Source: an uncultured Phycisphaerales bacterium (lineage in GTDB: Bacteria > Planctomycetota > Phycisphaerae > Tepidisphaerales > Tepidisphaeraceae). Taken from it: a stretch of DNA of 64,000 bases. Both the position numbers and the translations under genes were made by a program. The stretch is from positions 4,128,001 through 4,192,000 of the forward strand of contig CAVWLP010000002.1 of assembly GCA_963755915.1 (NCBI GenBank), written 5' to 3'. The notes below the pieces were generated by a model. That model was not told where the DNA came from, made no database searches, and saw only the letters and a program-made list of their open reading frames with translations. This document shows positions 6,707 to 58,459 of this stretch, one piece after another (positions within the stretch are counted from its first letter, which is position 1; the number at the start of each line of letters is the position of its first letter).

Positions 6707-6756
6707 CCCCCCTCCCCCCTTCCCCTTCCCCCCGCCCGCGCGATACAACCCATCCA

Positions 6757-8124
6757 ATGACCCGTGAACGCCTGGCGTGGCTCATCAGCATTATCCTCCT
6801 CGCCATCCTCGCGTTTCAGCTCCCCGGAACCCTCGCCGAGCGCGACGACGAATATTCCTGGGTCCGGACCATCGTCGAGATCCATCGCCAGGTCGTCGAA
6901 AACTATGTCGACCCCGTCAACGACAACGACCTCAAAGAAGGCGCCATCAAGGGAATGCTCGACGAACTCGGCGACCCCTACACCATCTACGTCCCGCCCA
7001 CCGAGCAGGAGGAATTCGACAAGGAGCTCGGAGGATCCTTCAGCGGCGTCGGTATCTCCCTCCGCGCCGTAAACGGCAAAATGGTCGTCATCTCCCCCAT
7101 CGAAGGCGGCCCCGCCGACCAGGCCGGCATCGACGGCAACGACATCATCGTAAAAGTCGACGGCAAACCCATCGCCGGAATGGAAATCGACGACGTCGTA
7201 AAACTCGTCTCCGGCCCCCTCGGCTCGCCCGTCACCCTCACCATCGACCGTGAAGGCAAGCTGATGGACTTCGTCCTTCACCGCCAGCAGATCGTCGTCC
7301 CCACCGTCCTCGGATACCAGCGCAATGCCCAGCAGAAGTGGAACTATTTCGTCTCCCAGAGCCCCAAAATCGCTTACATCCGCGTCACCCAGTTCGACGA
7401 CGGCACCTTCGACGAAATGAAAGACATCCTCGTCGGTGCCGATGGCAACGCCGGCCTCCTGTCCCAGGGCATGCAGGGCCTCGTCATGGACCTCCGCTTC
7501 AACCCCGGCGGCCAGCTTCAGCAGGCCATCAAAATAATCAACCTCTTCATCAAGGATGGCGTCATCGTCAGCACCCACGGCCGAAACTCCCCCGAAGAAA
7601 TCGACCGCGCCAGCCCCGATGCCCTCACCCTCCCCTATTTCCCAATGATCGTGCTGGTCAACGATCACTCCGCCAGCGCCTCCGAAATCGTTGCCGGAAG
7701 TCTCAAGGACAACCACCGTGCCCTGGTCGTAGGCCAGCGAACCTTCGGCAAAGGATCCGTCCAGCGGGTGATTCAACTCGGCCAGGACGATGGAACCCTC
7801 AAGATGACCGTCGCCCACTGGTATCTCCCCAGCGGCCGACTGGTGAGCCGCACCAAAGATTCCAAGGACTGGGGCGTCGATCCTCAGATCGTCGTAACAA
7901 CTGATGAAGCCGGCGAAGACGCCATCGAGGACTTGATGGACCGCCAGGAGGCGATCCGTTTCCATCCCCTCTCCACAACCATGCCGTCGAAGGAACCGAC
8001 CACCCAGCCCATCGATCCGCAATTCCAGCAGGCGATGACGACCATGACCGGATTGATCATCCTCGAAACGAACAAGCACGCATCAACAACAATGCCCGCA
8101 CCCAACGCTATCCCGGCGCAATAG
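6757..8124 (+). CDS. S41 family C-terminal processing peptidase
   Basis: Signal peptide, PDZ (FSGVGI), DLRFNPGG, SASASEIVAG, TFGKGSVQ. Confidence 0.95.
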   Translation: MTRERLAWLISIILLAILAFQLPGTLAERDDEYSWVRTIVEIHRQVVENYVDPVNDNDLKEGAIKGMLDELGDPYTIYVPPTEQEEFDKELGGSFSGVGISLRAVNGKMVVISPIEGGPADQAGIDGNDIIVKVDGKPIAGMEIDDVVKLVSGPLGSPVTLTIDREGKLMDFVLHRQQIVVPTVLGYQRNAQQKWNYFVSQSPKIAYIRVTQFDDGTFDEMKDILVGADGNAGLLSQGMQGLVMDLRFNPGGQLQQAIKIINLFIKDGVIVSTHGRNSPEEIDRASPDALTLPYFPMIVLVNDHSASASEIVAGSLKDNHRALVVGQRTFGKGSVQRVIQLGQDDGTLKMTVAHWYLPSGRLVSRTKDSKDWGVDPQIVVTTDEAGEDAIEDLMDRQEAIRFHPLSTTMPSKEPTTQPIDPQFQQAMTTMTGLIILETNKHASTTMPAPNAIPAQ

Positions 8125-52850: not shown

Positions 52851-53738
52851 GAGGCTATTTCAAAACCCGTGTTAGTTTATGAATTCGTCGGAAACAAATC
52901 ATGCATGCGGCCAACTCGTTGTAGGCCTGCCAATGGGTCGCGGTCTTTTCGTAGCAGCTTCGCAATCGACGCCAGTTGCCGAACCATGCCATCGTGCGTT
53001 CCACGACGTAACGCACTTTTCCCAAACCGCTGCCATGCTCGCTGCCGCGCGGAGCCAGCAGGCTTTTGATCTTCAAGGCGACGACGGCGGCGATGATCCA
53101 GGGGAAGCCATATCCGCGATCGCCAACCAAAGCATCGGGTTTGCTGCGGGGACGACCTCGTGGCCCTTGAATCGGCGGAAGATTCTGGACCATTTCGAGC
53201 ACCGGCTGCTCATCGCGGATGTTGGCGGGTGTGGTGTGAACCAACAGCGGCAAGCCTTGTGCCTCCGTGATGACGTGACGTTTGCACCCGTTTTTCCTGC
53301 GATCTACGGGACTCGGCCCCGTGTGCGCCCCCAAAAATGGCGCGAACCGATTCGGAATCGACCACGGCTCGCCGCAGGTCGATCTCGCCGAGACGACCGA
53401 GCCCATTGAGCAGCAGCTGGTGCAATCGCAGCCAAACGCCGGCACGAGTCCAATCGCGGAATCGTCGCCAGACGGTCACGCCGCTGACTCCGAAAACCTC
53501 GGCTGGTAACAGGTTGTACGGCATGCCGCTCCAGAGAATGAAGATCAACGCGCGCAGACACAACCGATCGTCGGCCGGCGGACGTCCTCCTTTTTTCGAG
53601 ACGTGGTGCGGCGGCAACAATGGCTGTACTTCGTTCCAAAGTTCGTCGGGAAGCAGTTCCACTGCCATGACATCGCCTCCTTGCGATAGAATGGTCGGAG
53701 TTCATTTTACGGAAAAACACCGGTTTTGAAACAGCTTC
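52851..53738 (-). mobile_element. IS5-family insertion sequence (two-ORF type), 888 bp
   Basis: 23-bp IRs GAGGCTATTTCAAAACCCGTGTT / GAAGCTGTTTCAAAACCGGTGTT; TAA duplication at 52848-52850 and 53739-53741. Confidence 0.93.
52855..53668 (-). CDS. IS5-family transposase, OrfA (53210-53668) + OrfB joined by a frameshift near 53330
   Basis: LPDELWNEVQPLLP..GGRPP.DDR; VVDSESVRA; GDRGY; RYVVERTMAWF; TTTTTGGGGG at the junction. Confidence 0.9.
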
Positions 53739-53867
53739 TAAATCCCCCTCCCTGAAATCCACCAGGCCCACACCAGCCGGCCAAATCGGCGCAGCAACAG
53801 GATCGCGAAGATTGCGTCGCATAAGCAGCACCGTCGGAGGAATGGCATCCATGTAGGAAATCGTCCC

Positions 53868-54012
53868 GCGGCAACTCCTTGTCCCACACCTCAAGGCCGC
53901 ACCGAACGTCACCCGGCCAGCCATGTGCCCTCGCCGCGGAACCGAATCACCTTATACGAGATACCGACTTTTCTCGTCACCAACACCGTAACCGAAAAGA
54001 CTCTTTCCTCTC
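53868..54012. repeat. Dispersed ~140-bp intergenic repeat, copy B
   Basis: Similar to 10307-10450, same orientation. Confidence 0.85.
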
Positions 54013-54062
54013 TTTTCGCTGCTTTTTTGAAATTCAACGCGATTGGAAATCAACCCCCTACT

Positions 54063-54090
54063 ACGTCCTATAATGTATGTTATGTTAAGT
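54063..54090 (+). other. dif: XerCD recombination site (dif-like)
   Basis: ACGTCCTATAA-TGTATG-TTATGTTAAGT: 11-6-11 structure; compare E. coli GGTGCGCATAA-TGTATA-TTATGTTAAAT (XerD arm 10/11). Confidence 0.88.
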
Positions 54091-54105
54091 TTCGTGGCAC
54101 TGGTA

Positions 54106-54930
54106 TCATTTGAGTAATCCAATCAAATCCTCCAGTTCCCACAGCCTATTTATCAATCCCGCTTCCATCGCTGGCGTCTGTTTAATGGTCGAGTGAATCC
54201 GGCACCAGTTGTAATAGGTCCAGAAAATCGCCGTCATCGCAACGTGATTCTCGAATTTCTTGCTGTGGGCGTTCGTCAGCCGCGTGTACCGCCGCACGCT
54301 CATCCGGGCGGTGAGATTCGACCGCTCAACAAAGCTGGTGGAGATATGCTTCGGATCGGGATTGCCGATGCGCGGCGTAACTTTGATGCCGATGCACTCC
54401 GGCGGGGAGTATTTGCCTTCCGCGTCTTTATCCGGGCCGTACAACTTCACCAGTTGGGCGAAATCAACCTCGCAATTGAATTGGTTAATCATCGCGCTCC
54501 AATAGGCGTGGAAGCCGTCTGTGGTGACCTGTACGCGATTCTTTAACCGCCATGCGACATCGGCGGTGATTACGTTCGCTACGCTGCCATCGCGGCCCCC
54601 TACCAGCCAAGCAACCATCAGCTTTGAATCGCTGTCGATGCAGGTCCAGGTCCAAGCATCGCCAATTCCGGCGGTGCCGCGAAGCTCCGGACGCACGTTC
54701 TTTTCTTTGCAATGAACGAAGTCCCAAAGCTCGTCAAACTGGAGACGCTTTGAATTGAGGTTGCAAACCTTGTCGTCATGGAACTGCTGGCAGGCTTCCC
54801 CAAGGTCGCGGATAAGGCGAAGGATGGTCGTTTTGGCGATACCCGTCATTCGGACGGTGCTATTGATGCTGCATCCCTCAACCAAGGCCATAATCACCCG
54901 GGACTGCTCTTGAATGCTTAACTTATTCAT
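54106..54930 (-). CDS. IS1-like DDE transposase, 274 aa, single ORF
   Basis: N-terminal HTH (LVEGCSINSTVRMTGIAKTTILR), QFDELWDFV, VTTDGFHAY, ISTSFVERSNLTAR, RYTRLTNAHSKK; stop codon lies inside the IR. Confidence 0.88.
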   Translation of the reverse strand: MNKLSIQEQSRVIMALVEGCSINSTVRMTGIAKTTILRLIRDLGEACQQFHDDKVCNLNSKRLQFDELWDFVHCKEKNVRPELRGTAGIGDAWTWTCIDSDSKLMVAWLVGGRDGSVANVITADVAWRLKNRVQVTTDGFHAYWSAMINQFNCEVDFAQLVKLYGPDKDAEGKYSPPECIGIKVTPRIGNPDPKHISTSFVERSNLTARMSVRRYTRLTNAHSKKFENHVAMTAIFWTYYNWCRIHSTIKQTPAMEAGLINRLWELEDLIGLLK

Positions 54931-54937
54931 GGAAATC

Positions 54938-55007
54938 GGTGTAGGTACAAATTGTGGGCTTGTCAAGAATAAAACCTCTTGACTTGACCACAATTTGTCC
55001 GTACCAT
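54938..55007. promoter_or_regulatory. Back-to-back sigma70 promoters with palindromic operator
   Basis: + strand TTGACT-N17-TACCAT-N6-ATG; - strand TTGACA-N17-TACACC-N7-ATG; inverted 11-mers ACAAATTGTGG (54947-54957) / CCACAATTTGT (54988-54998), one in each spacer. Confidence 0.75.
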
Positions 55008-55013
55008 GCCGCC

Positions 55014-55241
55014 ATGAAACCGAAAAAGATGGGACGCCCAAGGAAGAAATCGGATGCCGTGAAAAGCTCTTGGTTAGAGGTTCGGTGCGAGGAATCAGAA
55101 CGCGAGGCGTTCCGGGCAGCGGCGGAAGCCCAAGGGCTGGGGATGAGTGCGTGGATTCGCCAATGCCTGCGCCGTGCGGCCCGTAAAGAACTTGAGGATT
55201 TAAATCTGCCGGTTGCATTTTTGGATCGTCTATCGGCTTAA
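55014..55241 (+). CDS. Ribbon-helix-helix (CopG/MobC-like) regulator, 75 aa
   Basis: MGRPRKK...LEVRCEESEREAFRAAAEAQGLGMSAWIR. Confidence 0.75.
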   Translation: MKPKKMGRPRKKSDAVKSSWLEVRCEESEREAFRAAAEAQGLGMSAWIRQCLRRAARKELEDLNLPVAFLDRLSA

Positions 55242-55319
55242 CCGAATGTTCCAAGCCATGAAAAGAATCCCAAGCAAAAATCCAACGACAAAAGCAATCG
55301 CAATTACTCCAGCGATCAA

Positions 55320-56633
55320 TTGAGATTGGGGCCAACCTTGCCTTTTGATATTCATCGCTTTTCCTCAGAAACCCTTTGGGGCGTGATCGTTTTCGGGCTT
55401 ATTCTCCTCTTTGCTGGTCTCGCATTGGTGGGAATGAGGCCGTGGTGGGCTGGCTATATTACTGTGATACTGATCGTAGACCTCGGCATCTTCGTTTTGT
55501 TTGCATATTTGGACCCCAAGGCCCATGCGCCCAGCGTCACGCCTATATCGTTTTCTGCCACGGCCAAATCGGTGACTCTCCCGCCCCCGGAAGCGGGCTG
55601 GAGATTCATTCGGTACTCTTACGTCGATTTGGACTCTGTAGGAGCCAAAAGGCGACACTTTGTCTCCGCTGCACTTTACCTGAATGTTGTGAATATTGGA
55701 ACGTCGCCCCTTACGATCCAAAATTATTGGATTGAACTCCGACCGAAAAATGGTAGTCACCAACTGCTTGATTCCGTTCCGATTGAATCTAAAAATGTTG
55801 ATCTTTATAGAGACGTGACCCCGGAGGAGATTGCGTCGATCAAGGCGAACAATCCGGACTTCGCATACATTCCGAACGCCCAACGTAAGGTGACGTTGAC
55901 CGATAAGCCGTTTAATACCGCGATAAATAATCAACCGATTGGTCCGGGCGATACGGCCAGTGGTTGGGTCTTCCTTGTTCTTAACGGGCCCACACAACCC
56001 CTCTGGGACTTTTGGTTGTGTATCCAGCCGACTGACGGAGAAGAGGTCGATGAACCGATTGCGCTTCCCAATCCACAGGAGAATCGCCCATTGTCTCCGC
56101 AGCTTGAGGTCACCGCGACTTTTCCAATTGAAGACTTGCGACAGATTCCGGTCGTAAACCAACTCGACATTTACGATGTTCCGAGGACGCTCGGAAATCA
56201 TCGCGCCGAACTTATTTCCGCGATAAATTTGCCGGAATTTCGAGGCCAGAAGATCTCGATTGGTTCTGCTCCTAATTCGGAGTGCCAGAATTTTGCATCG
56301 GAGCTTCTCGCTGCACTTAAAGACGGAGGATGGGATGCCACCAATCAGAGCTTTGTGGTGCCACCAGGTCGCGTTGGCGTAAATCTCTGGATTAGCGCTG
56401 CGGTCATCAATATGCCGATAGCTCCAAGCGCCACTGCCTTCCAAACCTTTTTGTACAAATATGGATACACGCAGGATACGACCCAAATTAATGGGTATGC
56501 TGGCATTCCTGCCGCAGAACTCAGGCTTTATGTTTATCCCGTGCTGCCCCAACTTCAACCCGCGCACCCAAACGCCGCCCGTAACAACGCCGTAGTACCG
56601 AGGTCAGTGATTCGTCTTCGTCCCATCGCTTAG
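55320..56633 (+). CDS. Cargo 1: membrane-anchored hypothetical protein
   Basis: 437-aa ORF, two N-terminal TM helices, visibly lower GC; start uncertain. Confidence 0.7.
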   Translation: MRLGPTLPFDIHRFSSETLWGVIVFGLILLFAGLALVGMRPWWAGYITVILIVDLGIFVLFAYLDPKAHAPSVTPISFSATAKSVTLPPPEAGWRFIRYSYVDLDSVGAKRRHFVSAALYLNVVNIGTSPLTIQNYWIELRPKNGSHQLLDSVPIESKNVDLYRDVTPEEIASIKANNPDFAYIPNAQRKVTLTDKPFNTAINNQPIGPGDTASGWVFLVLNGPTQPLWDFWLCIQPTDGEEVDEPIALPNPQENRPLSPQLEVTATFPIEDLRQIPVVNQLDIYDVPRTLGNHRAELISAINLPEFRGQKISIGSAPNSECQNFASELLAALKDGGWDATNQSFVVPPGRVGVNLWISAAVINMPIAPSATAFQTFLYKYGYTQDTTQINGYAGIPAAELRLYVYPVLPQLQPAHPNAARNNAVVPRSVIRLRPIA

Positions 56634-56771
56634 CTTGCCACCGATGATCCTCTCCACCATCGCCAGTGATTGCTGGGCGAAGTCCGGCGTCTCGCGACGG
56701 CGCTTGGGTTTGGGTTTGGGTTTGGACTTCTTCTTTGACTTGGCTTTCGATTTCCGTACTTTCGCTGGCAT
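56604..56771 (-). CDS. Small Lys-rich protein, 55 aa (absent from the ORF track)
   Basis: MPAKVRKSKAKSKKKSKPKPKPKRRRETPDFAQQSLAMVERIIGGKLSDGTKTNH; TTGACA -35 at 56802-56807; C-terminal half conserved at 57947-58030. Confidence 0.7.
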   Translation of the reverse strand: MPAKVRKSKAKSKKKSKPKPKPKRRRETPDFAQQSLAMVERIIGGKLSDGTKTNH

Positions 56772-57216
56772 ACGGAGAATCTTTGCAGGTAATCCCCCTC
56801 ATGTCAATGTCCCTCCAAAATGTGGACACCGCAAACGATACCAGTACCAGTTTCGTGGTACTGGTATCATTTGAGTAAATCGAAATGCGCAAAGAGCTTG
56901 AGGATTTGAATCTGCCGGTGGCGTTTCTGGAAAGGTTATCGGCGTAACCGCGCAAAGCCATTCCAAGGCGAAACTAATGCGGGCAAGCCCGAAATCCCAT
57001 AGGCTCAGAACGAAGGATCGTTCCAGTAACGAAGTAAAACGCATCCTTCGCGATCCTCGCGTGACGCTGGCAGTGGAAGCAGTGCGGGGCCTAAATGTTT
57101 TTCGGTGGCTGGTGGGAATCTGTGAGGCCATCGGCTTAACGCTTCCCCAAATATTTCCCGACCCTAAATGCGAAGATCATCGAAAAGAGCCACGTGTTGA
57201 TAACGACCATTTCGCG

Positions 57217-57972
57217 ATGCCCGATACCTCGGAAGATCGGAAAATCGAGCGTGGAGATAGGCAAATCTACTGGCTCAAGCGAGGCAGCCATGCGACATTC
57301 GCTGTGGCGATAGTGTGCAATATCTATGGTCCGCTTAATCCCGACATAAACACAAGCGCATCGGTCATTGAGGGCATCTTCCTCGGTGTGTGCCTTATCT
57401 TCGAAATACTGGCAGCGTGGCGTGAGAAACAAATTAGTCGGCTTCGCGAACAGCGCCAAAACAAAAAAGATCAAGCACACGCAGCCGAGACGAAGTCGCT
57501 GCGTAGCGAGATCGCCGCAACTTCTAAGACGCTTGAAGAATCGAAGGCCGGACGATACGTGGACCTGGAAATGCGAAAAAAAATCAAAGAAGTGCTTTCT
57601 AAGTACATCGCGCAAAAGCAGGACTATATTGTTCGCGTTTACGTAAAAGACGCGGAGGCTCTGGGTTTTGCCGCCGACATAGATGAGACTCTTAGAGACT
57701 GCGGCTGGGAAGGCGAATCCGATCCGACGTTCAACAATCCGGATTTCGACAGAGGGGTTTCTATGTCCTAACAATTGGCCGACATGATAACTGCCGGGCC
57801 GGGCGGCAGGCCGATATATAGCCCTCCCGGTTACGCTCTGAAAGAGGCATTTGAAAAAGTTGGAATAAAGGTGTCCGCAATGCCAGTCTGGCGCGACGAA
57901 AGCGTCCCCTCGCACCACGTTGCGATCAACGTGGCGCAAAGCCCTACTAACGGCGTCTGGTCCCGTTGCTGA
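57217..57972 (+). pseudogene. Cargo 2: membrane protein split by an in-frame TAA (57769-57771)
   Basis: ORFs 56977-57771 and 57775-57972 are in the same frame; two TM segments, coiled coil, DAEALGFAADIDETLRDCGW domain. Confidence 0.65.
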
Positions 57973-58030
57973 GTTTCCCCCCGATAACCCTCTCCACCAT
58001 CGCCAGCGATTGCTGGGCGAAGTCCGGCGC
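57947..58030 (-). pseudogene. Remnant of the small basic protein gene
   Basis: PDFAQQSLAMVERVIGGKLSNGT; 5' half replaced by a TTCGTCATTCGGGCATTCGG-type repeat. Confidence 0.7.
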
Positions 58031-58459
58031 GGGACACCCTTCGTCATTCGGGCATTCGGATTTGACCTGTCCTCGGCGCTGGGATTCGTCATTAAAGATT
58101 GAAACCACGGCCTCTGGCCGTGGACGCGAATAGGCTCTGCCGTTCCGGCGTGAACAACGTCTGCAAGTGAAAATGGTCCTCCGACCTTGAAGCCGGTTGG
58201 CCTTGGAAGGAGAGCCATATGCACGAATTCGAAGAGGTTTTCGATGCGCACACCCAAGCGGCCGAACACTGACCGTCTCTGGCACGGGAGTCGATGATGC
58301 CGTCGTTTGACCATCATGGCAAGGTGCGCTCAACGCCCCCCTTGGGGGGCATCCTGATACCACCCCCTATGGGGGTGGAGACTCATTCTGGTTTCGGAAT
58401 TCGGGTTTCCAGAGACCCTGGTTTCGGAATTCGGATTCCCCCCTGTTATATTTCCCCCC

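Follow-up and report, generated by a model that had tools for sequence, protein, structure and literature searches.

DDE insertion sequences of the ISAjo2/ISAba32 subgroup of the IS1202 family are located exactly 5 bp from an arm of dif or pdif sites, and the available text of the two reports that describe them indicates that the site is left intact, that several insertions per site are possible, and that a safe-haven rationale has been proposed (PMC10132070; bioRxiv 10.1101/2022.12.17.520857). To our knowledge, dif targeting by a transposase has previously been described only for this IS1202/ISAjo2 family, and our full-text literature searches found no description of it for IS1-type elements. 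We analyzed a window of 64,000 nucleotides from the chromosome of an uncultured Phycisphaerales bacterium, in which an IS1-related element with cargo genes has very probably entered next to dif by a dif-directed DDE transposition that restores dif and stacks successive insertions by age.

The 28-bp site ending at position 54090, which a first-pass annotation had called dif-like, is the genuine chromosomal dif, being unique, conserved, and close to the convergence of a KOPS-like skew. It occupies positions 54063 to 54090 of the plus strand, with a XerC-type arm (54063-54073), a 6-bp centre (54074-54079), and the XerD-type arm TTATGTTAAGT (54080-54090). This 28-mer has no other match in the 6.6-Mb genome in a search at up to 7 mismatches of 28. 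Of 41 related genomes, 15 contain exactly one copy each, and the control gave 0 matches; across those 15 the arms are conserved and the centre is variable. The left flank of dif is syntenic, a right flank likewise in most of the genus, and the genome encodes a XerD gene and a XerC-like gene. The skew of KOPS-like motifs converges within about 0.1 Mb of dif: for GGTGGGG, GGNGGGG[GC], and GGGNAGGG, the cumulative curve reaches its maximum in the bin whose end is 4.1 Mb, whereas dif is at 4.18 Mb. The GC skew is irregular, with the global maximum of the contig at 2.75 Mb, away from dif, and only a local maximum at 4.08 Mb. The source genome is a metagenome assembly with a completeness of 81% and an estimated contamination of 8%. 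The flank adjacent to dif differs in every species of the genus, with a length of 547 to 4445 bp, and an unrelated IS5-like element (52855-53668) lies directly to the left of dif in the window.

The element adjacent to dif (element 1; 54096-56848) begins 5 bp past the XerD arm, and its start, its length of 2753 bp, and its perfect 8-bp target site duplication (TSD), all claimed in the first-pass annotation, are read directly in the sequence. The dif-proximal terminal inverted repeat (IR; 54096-54121, plus strand) lies at the C-terminal end of the transposase, and the dif-distal one occupies 56823-56848 (minus strand); the two repeats are imperfect, agreeing at 20 of 26 positions. The first TSD copy, AGTTTCGT (54088-54095), consists of the last 3 bp of the XerD arm and the 5-bp spacer; the second is found at 56849-56856, and the 8-mer occurs only at these two places in the 9.9 kb downstream of dif.

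These features bear on whether integration took place by XerCD recombination instead of transposition, as in the IMEX (the CTX, VGJ, and TLC phages and the gonococcal genetic island), in which XerCD recombine an element-borne dif-like site with dif. Both have dif as an attachment point, and the genome encodes Xer recombinases. However, 8-bp direct duplications, IRs of the IS1 type at the termini, and a DDE transposase characterize the elements; Xer exchanges strands in the central region of dif, outside which the junction falls; and we found neither an element-borne dif-like site nor a hybrid dif at both ends, the single dif-like site in 6.6 Mb being dif itself. Integration by XerCD is thus extremely improbable, and we do not assign the elements to the IMEX, as their IRs and TSDs mark transposition and there is no second dif at up to 7 mismatches.

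Element 1 carries a 274-aa DDE transposase (54106-54930, minus strand) that resembles the IS1 family. The match to the NCBIfam IS1 model NF033558 (E=1e-14) scores 55 bits against a curated cut-off of 100 bits and covers only residues 5-147; there is no Pfam match. D66, D138, and E202 are kept in 79-80 of 80 relatives, and plasmid-borne relatives with 44-50% identity are annotated by NCBI as 'IS1 family transposase'. The protein is encoded by a single open reading frame, with no InsA/InsB' frameshift arrangement. The following region (54931-55013), in which an 11-bp inverted repeat (ACAAATTGTGG ... CCACAATTTGT) flanks two TTGAC boxes, may serve as a divergent promoter/operator. Next comes a 75-aa ribbon-helix-helix protein (55014-55241, plus strand; Pfam NikA-like, E=9e-7, and RHH_1), which is probably the regulator of the element and has a counterpart with 90% identity in the element of another species of the genus (G011). 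The cargo gene (cargo 1; 55320-56633, plus strand; start codon uncertain) encodes a 437-aa membrane-anchored protein that has no family match in Pfam, NCBIfam, or PADLOC and whose C-terminus bears a weak likeness to the cargo of G007, of G011, and of a second element described below. Finally, a 55-aa basic protein (56604-56771, minus strand) appears to be a weak, shortened counterpart of the small core protein S of the family: together with its counterparts in G011 and G010 it forms the top three of 1386 open reading frames compared with the S profile, each at only E~0.3, and it is placed just inside the IR, as is S in about 75 loci. Element 1 is an intact and probably active member of a family of small IS1-related cargo transposons.

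Directly after the second AGTTTCGT begins a related, older, and decayed element (element 2; 56857-58029), whose IR (56857-56882) equals the first IR at 21 of 22 positions. It retains a regulator tail (56888-56947), the remainder of the regulator and the transposase having been deleted, a cargo gene (cargo 2; 56977-57972) that a single in-frame stop (57769-57771) interrupts, and the tail of the small protein (57956-58027, minus strand). As the first-pass annotation had proposed, both elements are diverged relatives: the regulator tails agree at 18 of 19 amino acids and at only 82.5% of nucleotides, and the homologous parts differ by 13-18%. From this divergence and the position of the IR, we infer that element 2 was inserted independently. 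Its homology to element 1 ends at 58029, with neither a distal IR at up to 4 mismatches in 18 nor a TSD. The right boundary originally given as 58367 is not demonstrable as an element end, since homology has stopped by then and the IR candidate at 58350-58367 agrees with the IR at only 9 of 17 positions. The remaining DNA (58030-58417) is missing from the sister genome (G001), in which homology to the window begins again at 58418 and 17 nt at 58386-58402 also match; the genome-specific DNA relative to this sister, which is the dif-adjacent variable region, therefore has its outer limit at about 58386-58417.

That the tandem arose in assembly, from a repeat that was collapsed or chimeric, deserves consideration in a metagenome assembly with the estimated contamination given above, and short-read contigs do break at the IRs. 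Nevertheless, short-read contigs of public runs span both junctions: one (X1 record 2) covers 53760-56448, from dif into element 1, and an independent one (X4 record 29) covers 56629-57091, bridging the IR-TSD-IR junction with 0 differences. All four runs come from a single study, and the source sample may be among them; the runs contain no joints and no empty-site reads, that is, no read-level sign of movement. The divergence between the two elements means that they are not a collapsed repeat, and the same architecture is found again in other genomes. We give an assembly artefact almost no credence.

The proposed empty site is found in the sister genome G001, whose flanks are 92-94% identical to those of the window genome and which lacks element 1: it reads dif+TTCGT and then unrelated DNA. 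Independent events were found in three other species of the genus. The first (G011) has a complete 1729-bp element at dif+5, beginning with the same IR 22-mer as element 1; it is flanked by two copies of the TSD AGTTGTGC and is followed by no IR. The second (G005) has an IR remnant at dif+5 with the spacer TATGT, different from the 5-bp spacer of the first. In the third (G009), a fossil IR-AGTTCTAT-IR junction lies at a distance of 564-595 bp from dif, and the first three letters of its 8-mer are AGT. The IR 22-mer of the window lineage (up to 3 mismatches) has three matches in 141 genomes of the family, all of them at dif or behind a dif-proximal element and none elsewhere. Another lineage of the element family in the same genome is inserted at non-dif sites, with TSDs CGGCGATT and CAATATTA; targeting is therefore a property of the lineage and not of the region. 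The window lineage is rare, with one closer transposase (68% identity) in metagenomes, on a contig that ends before the IR.

A wider sample comprised 107 loci with transposases of ~50% identity from other phyla. A dif-like 28-mer is present at 18 of them (14 distinct sites after collapsing duplicates), and at every one of these 18 the distance from the XerD arm to the start of an IS1-like IR is exactly 5 bp. Perfect 8-bp TSDs flank 48 of the 56 complete elements of the family; at one locus (L095) the IRs are perfect and the TSD CCTTGTGG takes in the final 3 bp of the arm. The acidobacterial dif-like motif belongs to the host: 4 of the 5 genomes that we checked have it at one place only, it is present in 87 of 151 genomes of one order, the composite of dif, 5 bp, and IR being found in 4 of those 151, and most of the 30 motif flanks that we inspected have no relation to the element. 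Elements of the larger acidobacterial clade lie at dif in both orientations, so targeting is not directional there. The window transposase falls outside this clade, which implies two origins or frequent loss of the trait; for the window, the wider sample is evidence by analogy. Within the dif-targeting clade, one complete element (L138) sits at a non-dif site.

The empty site, the three events within the genus, the invariant spacing, and the dif-only distribution of the IR 22-mer support the specific targeting of dif that the first-pass annotation had advanced. If there were no specific recognition, and the terminus or the AT-rich DNA by dif were only a tolerant dumping ground for insertion sequences, the neighbouring IS5-like element and the variable flank would be expected, but such tolerance cannot explain why about 19 insertions that occurred independently, in hosts of different phyla and with different spacers, share one phosphodiester, nor does it agree with other family lineages in the same genome inserting elsewhere; we regard it as very improbable. 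Slightly more credible, yet likewise very improbable, is that insertion is aimed at the outer end of a relative already in place, by reuse of the IR end or the TSD, and that proximity to dif is secondary. Element 1 does abut the IR of element 2, and IR-8bp-IR junctions are frequent in the family, also without a visible dif (L032, L038, L148, L113, L163); since the first three are stacks in non-dif lineages, some end- or site-reuse takes place without dif. However, the first element of any stack still needed to find dif, and three single elements at dif+5 (G011, L117, L123) have no IR-like sequence behind them. The exact spacing from the XerD arm and a duplication that always starts with the last 3 bp of the arm also argue for dif itself as the target. 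The order with the newest element next to dif, also claimed at first pass, agrees with the decay gradient in the window and with four further loci (L024, L095, L125, L134). In two stacks, the 8-mer between the IRs and the one on the dif side are reverse complements of each other, completely so in L026 and at 7 of 8 positions for L023, which simple repeated insertion does not predict.

We propose that dif-directed transposition would proceed as follows. A family member has terminal IRs that start GGYASTGG, encodes a DDE transposase of ~275 aa along with a small basic protein, carries accessory genes over 1-4 kb, and is flanked by the 8-bp TSD. Its transpososome would make an 8-bp staggered cut covering the last 3 bp of the XerD arm and the next 5 bp. 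Because the TSD covers the end of the arm, the 28-bp dif is regenerated intact and the IR always lies 5 bp outside the arm; because insertion restores the site, dif is reusable. Each newcomer would insert between dif and the resident copy, moving one copy of the 8-mer outward, and repetition would give an age-ordered stack, here the intact element 1 followed by element 2, in which the transposase, the distal IR, and the cargo reading frame are lost.

As to what recognizes the site, we lean slightly towards an element protein, most likely the transposase, that would read the conserved inner XerD half-site as DNA and measure a fixed distance; beside this preference, we note that the cut falls 3 bp inside the XerD arm and that acidobacterial-clade elements occur in either orientation. 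Capture of XerD while it occupies the arm, as proposed for ISAjo2 and XerC, is the main alternative and seems to us the less probable of the two, though by no means negligible. The benefit of dif is likely that of a safe harbour, a site present once per genome in nearly every host, with a flank that can be interrupted harmlessly. The suggestion of a gene-capture array stands only in part: the term is overstated for the window lineage, whose cargo proteins are divergent members of one family and not unrelated captured genes. A broader generalization, which we consider evenly balanced, is that the XerD half of dif serves two or more clades of IS1-related cargo transposons, with hosts in different phyla, as a universal attachment site; an element-encoded protein would read it, the cut would fall at a fixed ruler distance, 3 bp inside the arm, and age-ordered islands of accessory and defence genes would form at the terminus with dimer resolution undamaged.

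Elements that target dif account for the hypervariable DNA beside it (547-4445 bp in one genus), and dif flanks are places to look for accumulating accessory and defence genes; a PD-Lambda-2-type gene is present in one relative. The signature of an IR plus 5 bp aids the location of dif in poorly studied phyla. A 275-aa transposase that behaves like a site-specific integrase is a possible useful tool; if it is itself the reader, few self-contained systems for site-specific DDE integration would be smaller, and the target would be a sequence that most bacterial chromosomes contain once.

Among other known systems, Tn7 combines a TnsABC core with a dedicated selector, TnsD/TniQ, and homes to attTn7. 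Tn7-like elements share with ours a single conserved harmless site, a fixed distance from the recognized sequence, and cargo that often consists of defence genes; membership is excluded, as no TnsA/B/C or TnsD/TniQ families are found among the open reading frames of an element with about 3 small genes. The IS1 family has terminal IRs starting GGT..TG and TSDs of 8-9 bp. The window IRs GGCACTGG and GGTACTGG, like GGTAGTGG in most relatives, have this start, and the window TSD is 8 bp long, which together with a DDE transposase whose N-terminal HTH matches the IS1 model, though below the cut-off, makes up the likeness. In classical IS1, InsA and InsB' are joined by a programmed frameshift, whereas our elements have a single transposase frame with a below-cut-off score, a separate small basic protein, a ribbon-helix-helix regulator, and cargo. 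The single frame excludes only the classical type; single-ORF IS1 subgroups exist (ISfinder), and single-ORF and ISMhu11-type members may carry passenger genes.

The closest parallel is the ISAjo2 subgroup, with which the window elements have in common the 5-bp spacing, the intact site, the repeated insertion, and the safe-haven idea. As far as the available text of the two reports goes, the differences are many. The IS1202 transposase is a TnsB-like protein of 441-457 aa (PMC10132070), compared with 274 aa and an IS1-like type in the window; the IS1202 ends are TGT...ACA, compared with GGYASTGG. ISAjo2 elements lie on the XerC side, with the left IR 5 bp away, ours on the XerD side; their TSD is 5 bp long and outside the arm, ours 8 bp with 3 bp overlapping it. 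Their orientation is fixed, whereas either is used in the acidobacterial clade; they have no cargo, whereas the IS1-like family carries 1-4 kb; and their hosts are mainly Acinetobacter plasmids, whereas ours are chromosomes of soil bacteria. By the same text, the 274-aa transposase, the GG ends, the 8-bp TSD, and the XerD side rule out membership in the IS1202 family. The window elements and their relatives add the opposite arm, a duplication reaching into the arm, and hosts that are uncultured soil bacteria from more than one phylum, and they provide a second independent system for studying how transposases find Xer sites. The equal 5-bp spacing in an unrelated and much smaller transposase represents a convergence on dif as a safe harbour.

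The 28-mer at positions 54063-54090 has the canonical layout of dif, the Xer dimer-resolution site, when its sequence is read: an 11-bp left arm that ends in ATAA, then a centre of 6 bp, with TTATGTTAAGT as the right arm. According to PMC2731167, the XerD-side 11-mer of E. coli dif is TTATGTTAAAT, and the XerD side is the better conserved one. Several lines of evidence agree that the 28-mer is the real dif. It is single in the 6.6-Mb assembly, even with up to 7/28 mismatches allowed, and a search of 41 genomes (the window's own and 40 relatives) at no more than 3 mismatches found it exactly once in 15, with conserved arms and a variable central 6 bp. The reversed control pattern gave 0 matches across the same 41 genomes, and one of the 40 relatives, G014, gave no match to dif. 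The window's genome has a XerD gene scoring above the curated cut-off and another Xer gene, for which XerC gives the better score. The latter, at C2:3827107-3828010 (C2 and C3 are contigs of this genome), is split over three reading frames in the assembly, either as a frameshifted pseudogene or through long-read indel errors.

GC skew was rejected as a terminus marker because of its irregular course (it peaks globally at 2.75 Mb and locally at 4.08 Mb), and only oligomer skew was informative. For G-rich polar motifs, among them the E. coli KOPS consensus, cumulative strand skew is highest on the contig in the bin that ends at 4.1 Mb; dif, at 4.18 Mb, is about 0.1 Mb away. The strand preference of GGNGGGGG-type G-rich octamers and of the E. 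coli KOPS consensus flips near 4.1 Mb and 0.4 Mb on contig C2, and these motifs are candidates for the FtsK-orienting polar sequences of this organism.

The intact cargo element next to this site, element 1, begins with its terminal inverted repeat (IR) at 54096, 5 bases past the right arm of dif, and its partner IR ends at 56848, giving a length of 2753 bp. The two IRs agree at 20/26 positions, and AGTTTCGT flanks the element as a target-site duplication (TSD) at 54088-54095 and 56849-56856. The transposase ORF, at 54106-54930 on the minus strand, encodes 274 aa; divergent from it is the gene of a 75-aa ribbon-helix-helix protein, followed by that of a 437-aa membrane protein of no known family (cargo 1) and, just inside the distal IR, that of a 55-aa basic protein, whose match to the family's small basic protein S (E~0.3 only) is suggestive of homology. 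A Pfam search of the transposase gave no match, while the NCBIfam IS1 model aligns to residues 5-147 with E=1e-14, below the model's cut-off, and plasmid-borne relatives with 44-50% identity carry the annotation "IS1 family transposase". D66, D138 and E202 are kept in 79-80 rows of an alignment of 80 transposase relatives, a conservation that fits an intact DDE site in the window's enzyme.

Directly behind, the decayed element 2 starts at 56857 with an IR that agrees with that of element 1 at 21/22 positions. Besides this IR, it retains the regulator's last 19 codons, the small protein's tail and a different cargo gene, which a single in-frame stop interrupts; it is without transposase and distal IR. 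The regulator tails are identical at 18/19 aa but only at 82.5% at the nucleotide level, and the small-protein tails match at 87% of nucleotides. Elements 1 and 2 differ in sequence and gene content and are therefore diverged relatives, not a local duplication, as the first-pass annotation had proposed; its description of dif, the IR 5 bp on, the TSDs and the second IR was also accurate. The right end that it gave to element 2, 58367, is not upheld, being based on a mere 9/17 IR match; a search at up to 4/18 mismatches found no right-end IR, and no further AGTTTCGT occurs within 9.9 kb downstream of dif. Left of dif, an IS5/IS4-type element (52855-53668, minus strand; two ORFs, DUF4096 and DDE_Tnp_1) is missing from the sister genome, G001, and has a second copy with an identical start at C2:4776922.

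That the tandem might be an assembly artefact was checked with short-read contigs covering the region, which come from four runs of one soil study, the source sample possibly among them. One contig runs from dif into element 1, and another crosses the IR-TSD-IR junction with zero differences, so that both junctions are bridged. The contigs from the four runs, which are blind to rare forms, contain no empty-site or circle joints.

The flanks in G001 are 92-94% identical to the window, and this genome shows the empty site at the left junction (dif+TTCGT) that the first-pass annotation had suggested seeking in relatives: dif and TTCGT are followed by unrelated DNA, and homology to the window picks up again at 58418. 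Three other relatives have insertions or their traces. In G011, the IR of a 1729-bp relative starts 5 bp past the arm, with AGTTGTGC flanking both sides and no IR-like sequence behind the element; in G005, an IR remnant occupies the same dif+5 position, with the spacer TATGT. G009 has an IR-AGTTCTAT-IR junction 564-595 bp from dif, whose 8-mer opens with AGT, the arm's last three bases, the footprint expected of an older element that was once 5 bp from dif, with a later one landing between. The lineage's IR 22-mer (at most 3 mismatches) has three occurrences in 141 family genomes, all at these dif-associated places, and element orientation is identical in the three readable cases of the genus. 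Throughout the genus, synteny holds for dif's left flank and for one right-flank gene, and the variable stretch between dif and the syntenic flanks, 547 to 4445 bp, contains patchy remnants of regulator, cargo and small protein.

The cargo proteins of elements 1 and 2 and of the G011 element match no Pfam, NCBIfam or PADLOC family, and a protein atlas search with the cargo returned only sub-threshold matches of 0.78. The cargo proteins of the window, G011 and a further relative, G007, have in common a C-terminal domain of weak similarity (E values from 2e-21 to 0.003) and, judged by it, are a fast-evolving family and not unrelated captured genes; the initial label of gene capture is an overstatement for this lineage. 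Passengers in other clades include a proteasome-like hydrolase and a PD-Lambda-2_B defence homologue (E=1e-38).

Transposase scans gave 107 loci, 27 from genomes and 80 from metagenomes, in Acidobacteriota, Pseudomonadota, Bacteroidota, Planctomycetota and other hosts. Most are about 50% identical to the window's transposase; the closest metagenome relative, on a 1196-bp contig ending within the gene, is 68% identical, and all others are at about 50%. Both IRs could be located in 56 loci, with perfect 8-bp duplications in 48 of them and sizes of 1.9 to 4.8 kb. These IS1-like elements form a family of small cargo-carrying elements. The search for ATAA-N6-TTATG covered all 107 loci (750 kb) and gave 24 rows, of which 19, in 18 loci, are dif-type 28-mers and the remaining five, from three loci, are palindromes located where the transposase begins. 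The distance from IR to XerD motif, which the earlier annotation had put forward as the quantity to survey among homologues, is constant: in 18/18 dif-holding loci, which collapse to 14 distinct sites with differing spacers once duplicates are merged, an IR of the form GGTA[GC]TGG begins exactly 5 bp past the XerD-type arm. In L095, the element is 4760 bp long and its IRs are perfect; its duplication, CCTTGTGG, opens with the three bases that end the arm.

The acidobacterial dif-type motif is the host's, not the element's. It occurs at one place only in 4/5 genomes tested and is present in 87/151 genomes of one order, the composite of dif, 5 bp and IR being found in 4/151 of the same genomes, and most of the 30 motif flanks examined are unrelated to the element. 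In L025 (4263-4313), the dif-like site is partly duplicated in tandem, as two overlapping copies 23 bp apart, and the element is placed 5 bp after the second copy. The L098/L101 and L030/L118 elements are 5 bp from an XerD-arm-like sequence (TTATGTCAAGT; ATATGTCAACA) with no recognisable XerC arm beside it; if these half-sites are real, the XerD arm alone may suffice as target. A short sequence, GGTA..AA.AT.TACTTGAC, recurs exactly at the expected IR start, at dif+6 in L215 and L230 and behind the distal duplication in L095, L125 and L132, and is either a fossil IR, truncated and with its promoter box, or the terminus of a different kind of element.

A quick maximum-likelihood tree built from 80 transposases places the acidobacterial elements associated with dif in one 24-row clade. 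Of its rows, 15 are at dif, and for most of the remainder the contig is too short to decide; L138, within this clade, occupies an ordinary site. The window's transposase belongs to a separate 9-row clade, so the trait either had more than one origin or was frequently lost. In the acidobacterial clade, the small-protein end faces dif in L025, L117, L125, L134 and L143 and points away in others, and L104 and L143 have almost identical transposases in opposite orientation at dif; targeting there is thus position-exact, not directional.

Insertion away from dif also occurs. Two identical copies of another lineage occupy ordinary sites in the window's genome, with duplications CGGCGATT and CAATATTA, and IR-8bp-IR junctions are present too in lineages not seen at dif. 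Non-dif lineages prefer 8-bp targets that are rich in A and T and partly palindromic, among them GGAATTTC, CAAATTTG, AACATTTG and GAAATTTC, examples being L022, L130, L138, L148 and own-genome copies such as C2:2031973 and C2:3543398. The flanks of the non-dif alphaproteobacterial elements L032, L036 and L042 contain GAAC-N7-GAAC or GTTC-N7-GTTC, which resembles the alphaproteobacterial LexA box. L036 and L042 belong to different genomes and have nearly the same flank; for this lineage, the target may be another protein-bound site. At three loci of the window's genome, L171-L173 (C2:3541458-3553832, C2:3506053-3509690 and C3:1339431-1340853), short transposase C-terminal fragments (the last ~50 aa) are clustered at intervals of ~700 bp, and behind each fragment is a small gene whose start resembles a signal peptide; full IS1-like copies and tyrosine recombinase genes are nearby. 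These clusters look like decayed stacks at non-dif sites. Stacks carry direct 8-mers except in two loci: there, the 8-mer between the abutted IRs is the reverse complement of the one on the dif side, at 8/8 positions in L026 (4572-4579 versus 7609-7616) and at 7/8 in L023 (4322-4329 versus 6713-6720). The spacer may have flipped within the IR-8bp-IR palindrome.

According to the data, the cut falls at a constant position with respect to the XerD arm, the regenerated site is used again, and the elements are older the farther they lie from dif. Both dif-associated clades share the transposase and the small basic protein, the latter weakly supported in the window's lineage and present in ~75 loci, at dif or not. 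The site could be recognised through capture of arm-bound XerD; we favour instead that the transposase would read the half-site DNA directly, because the duplication overlaps the arm by 3 bp and elements insert in both orientations. Prediction of a complex of the genome's XerD with the transposase, from alignments of 19 rows (XerD) and 32 rows (transposase), scored 0.00 against a mark of 0.32, which speaks neither for nor against contact. Resemblance of the IR interior to the XerD arm was dropped as a basis of targeting, the window's IR having no such likeness; the acidobacterial IR interior is loosely like the arm (AGTTTG versus AGTTTA).

The already known case of dif-associated insertion is the ISAjo2/ISAba32 group of the IS1202 family. 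These elements are described as inserting 5 bp from the XerC arm with a 5-bp duplication, multiple insertions being possible at one site (PMC10132070; bioRxiv 10.1101/2022.12.17.520857), and as encoding a TnsB-like transposase of 441-457 aa (PMC10132070). Full-text searches of the literature gave no report of IS1-type elements at dif; further dif-associated IS are listed in the supplementary tables of these two IS1202 papers and could in principle include non-IS1202 cases. Compared with ISAjo2/ISAba32, the present elements behave alike, yet they have none of the features that define membership of the IS1202 family.
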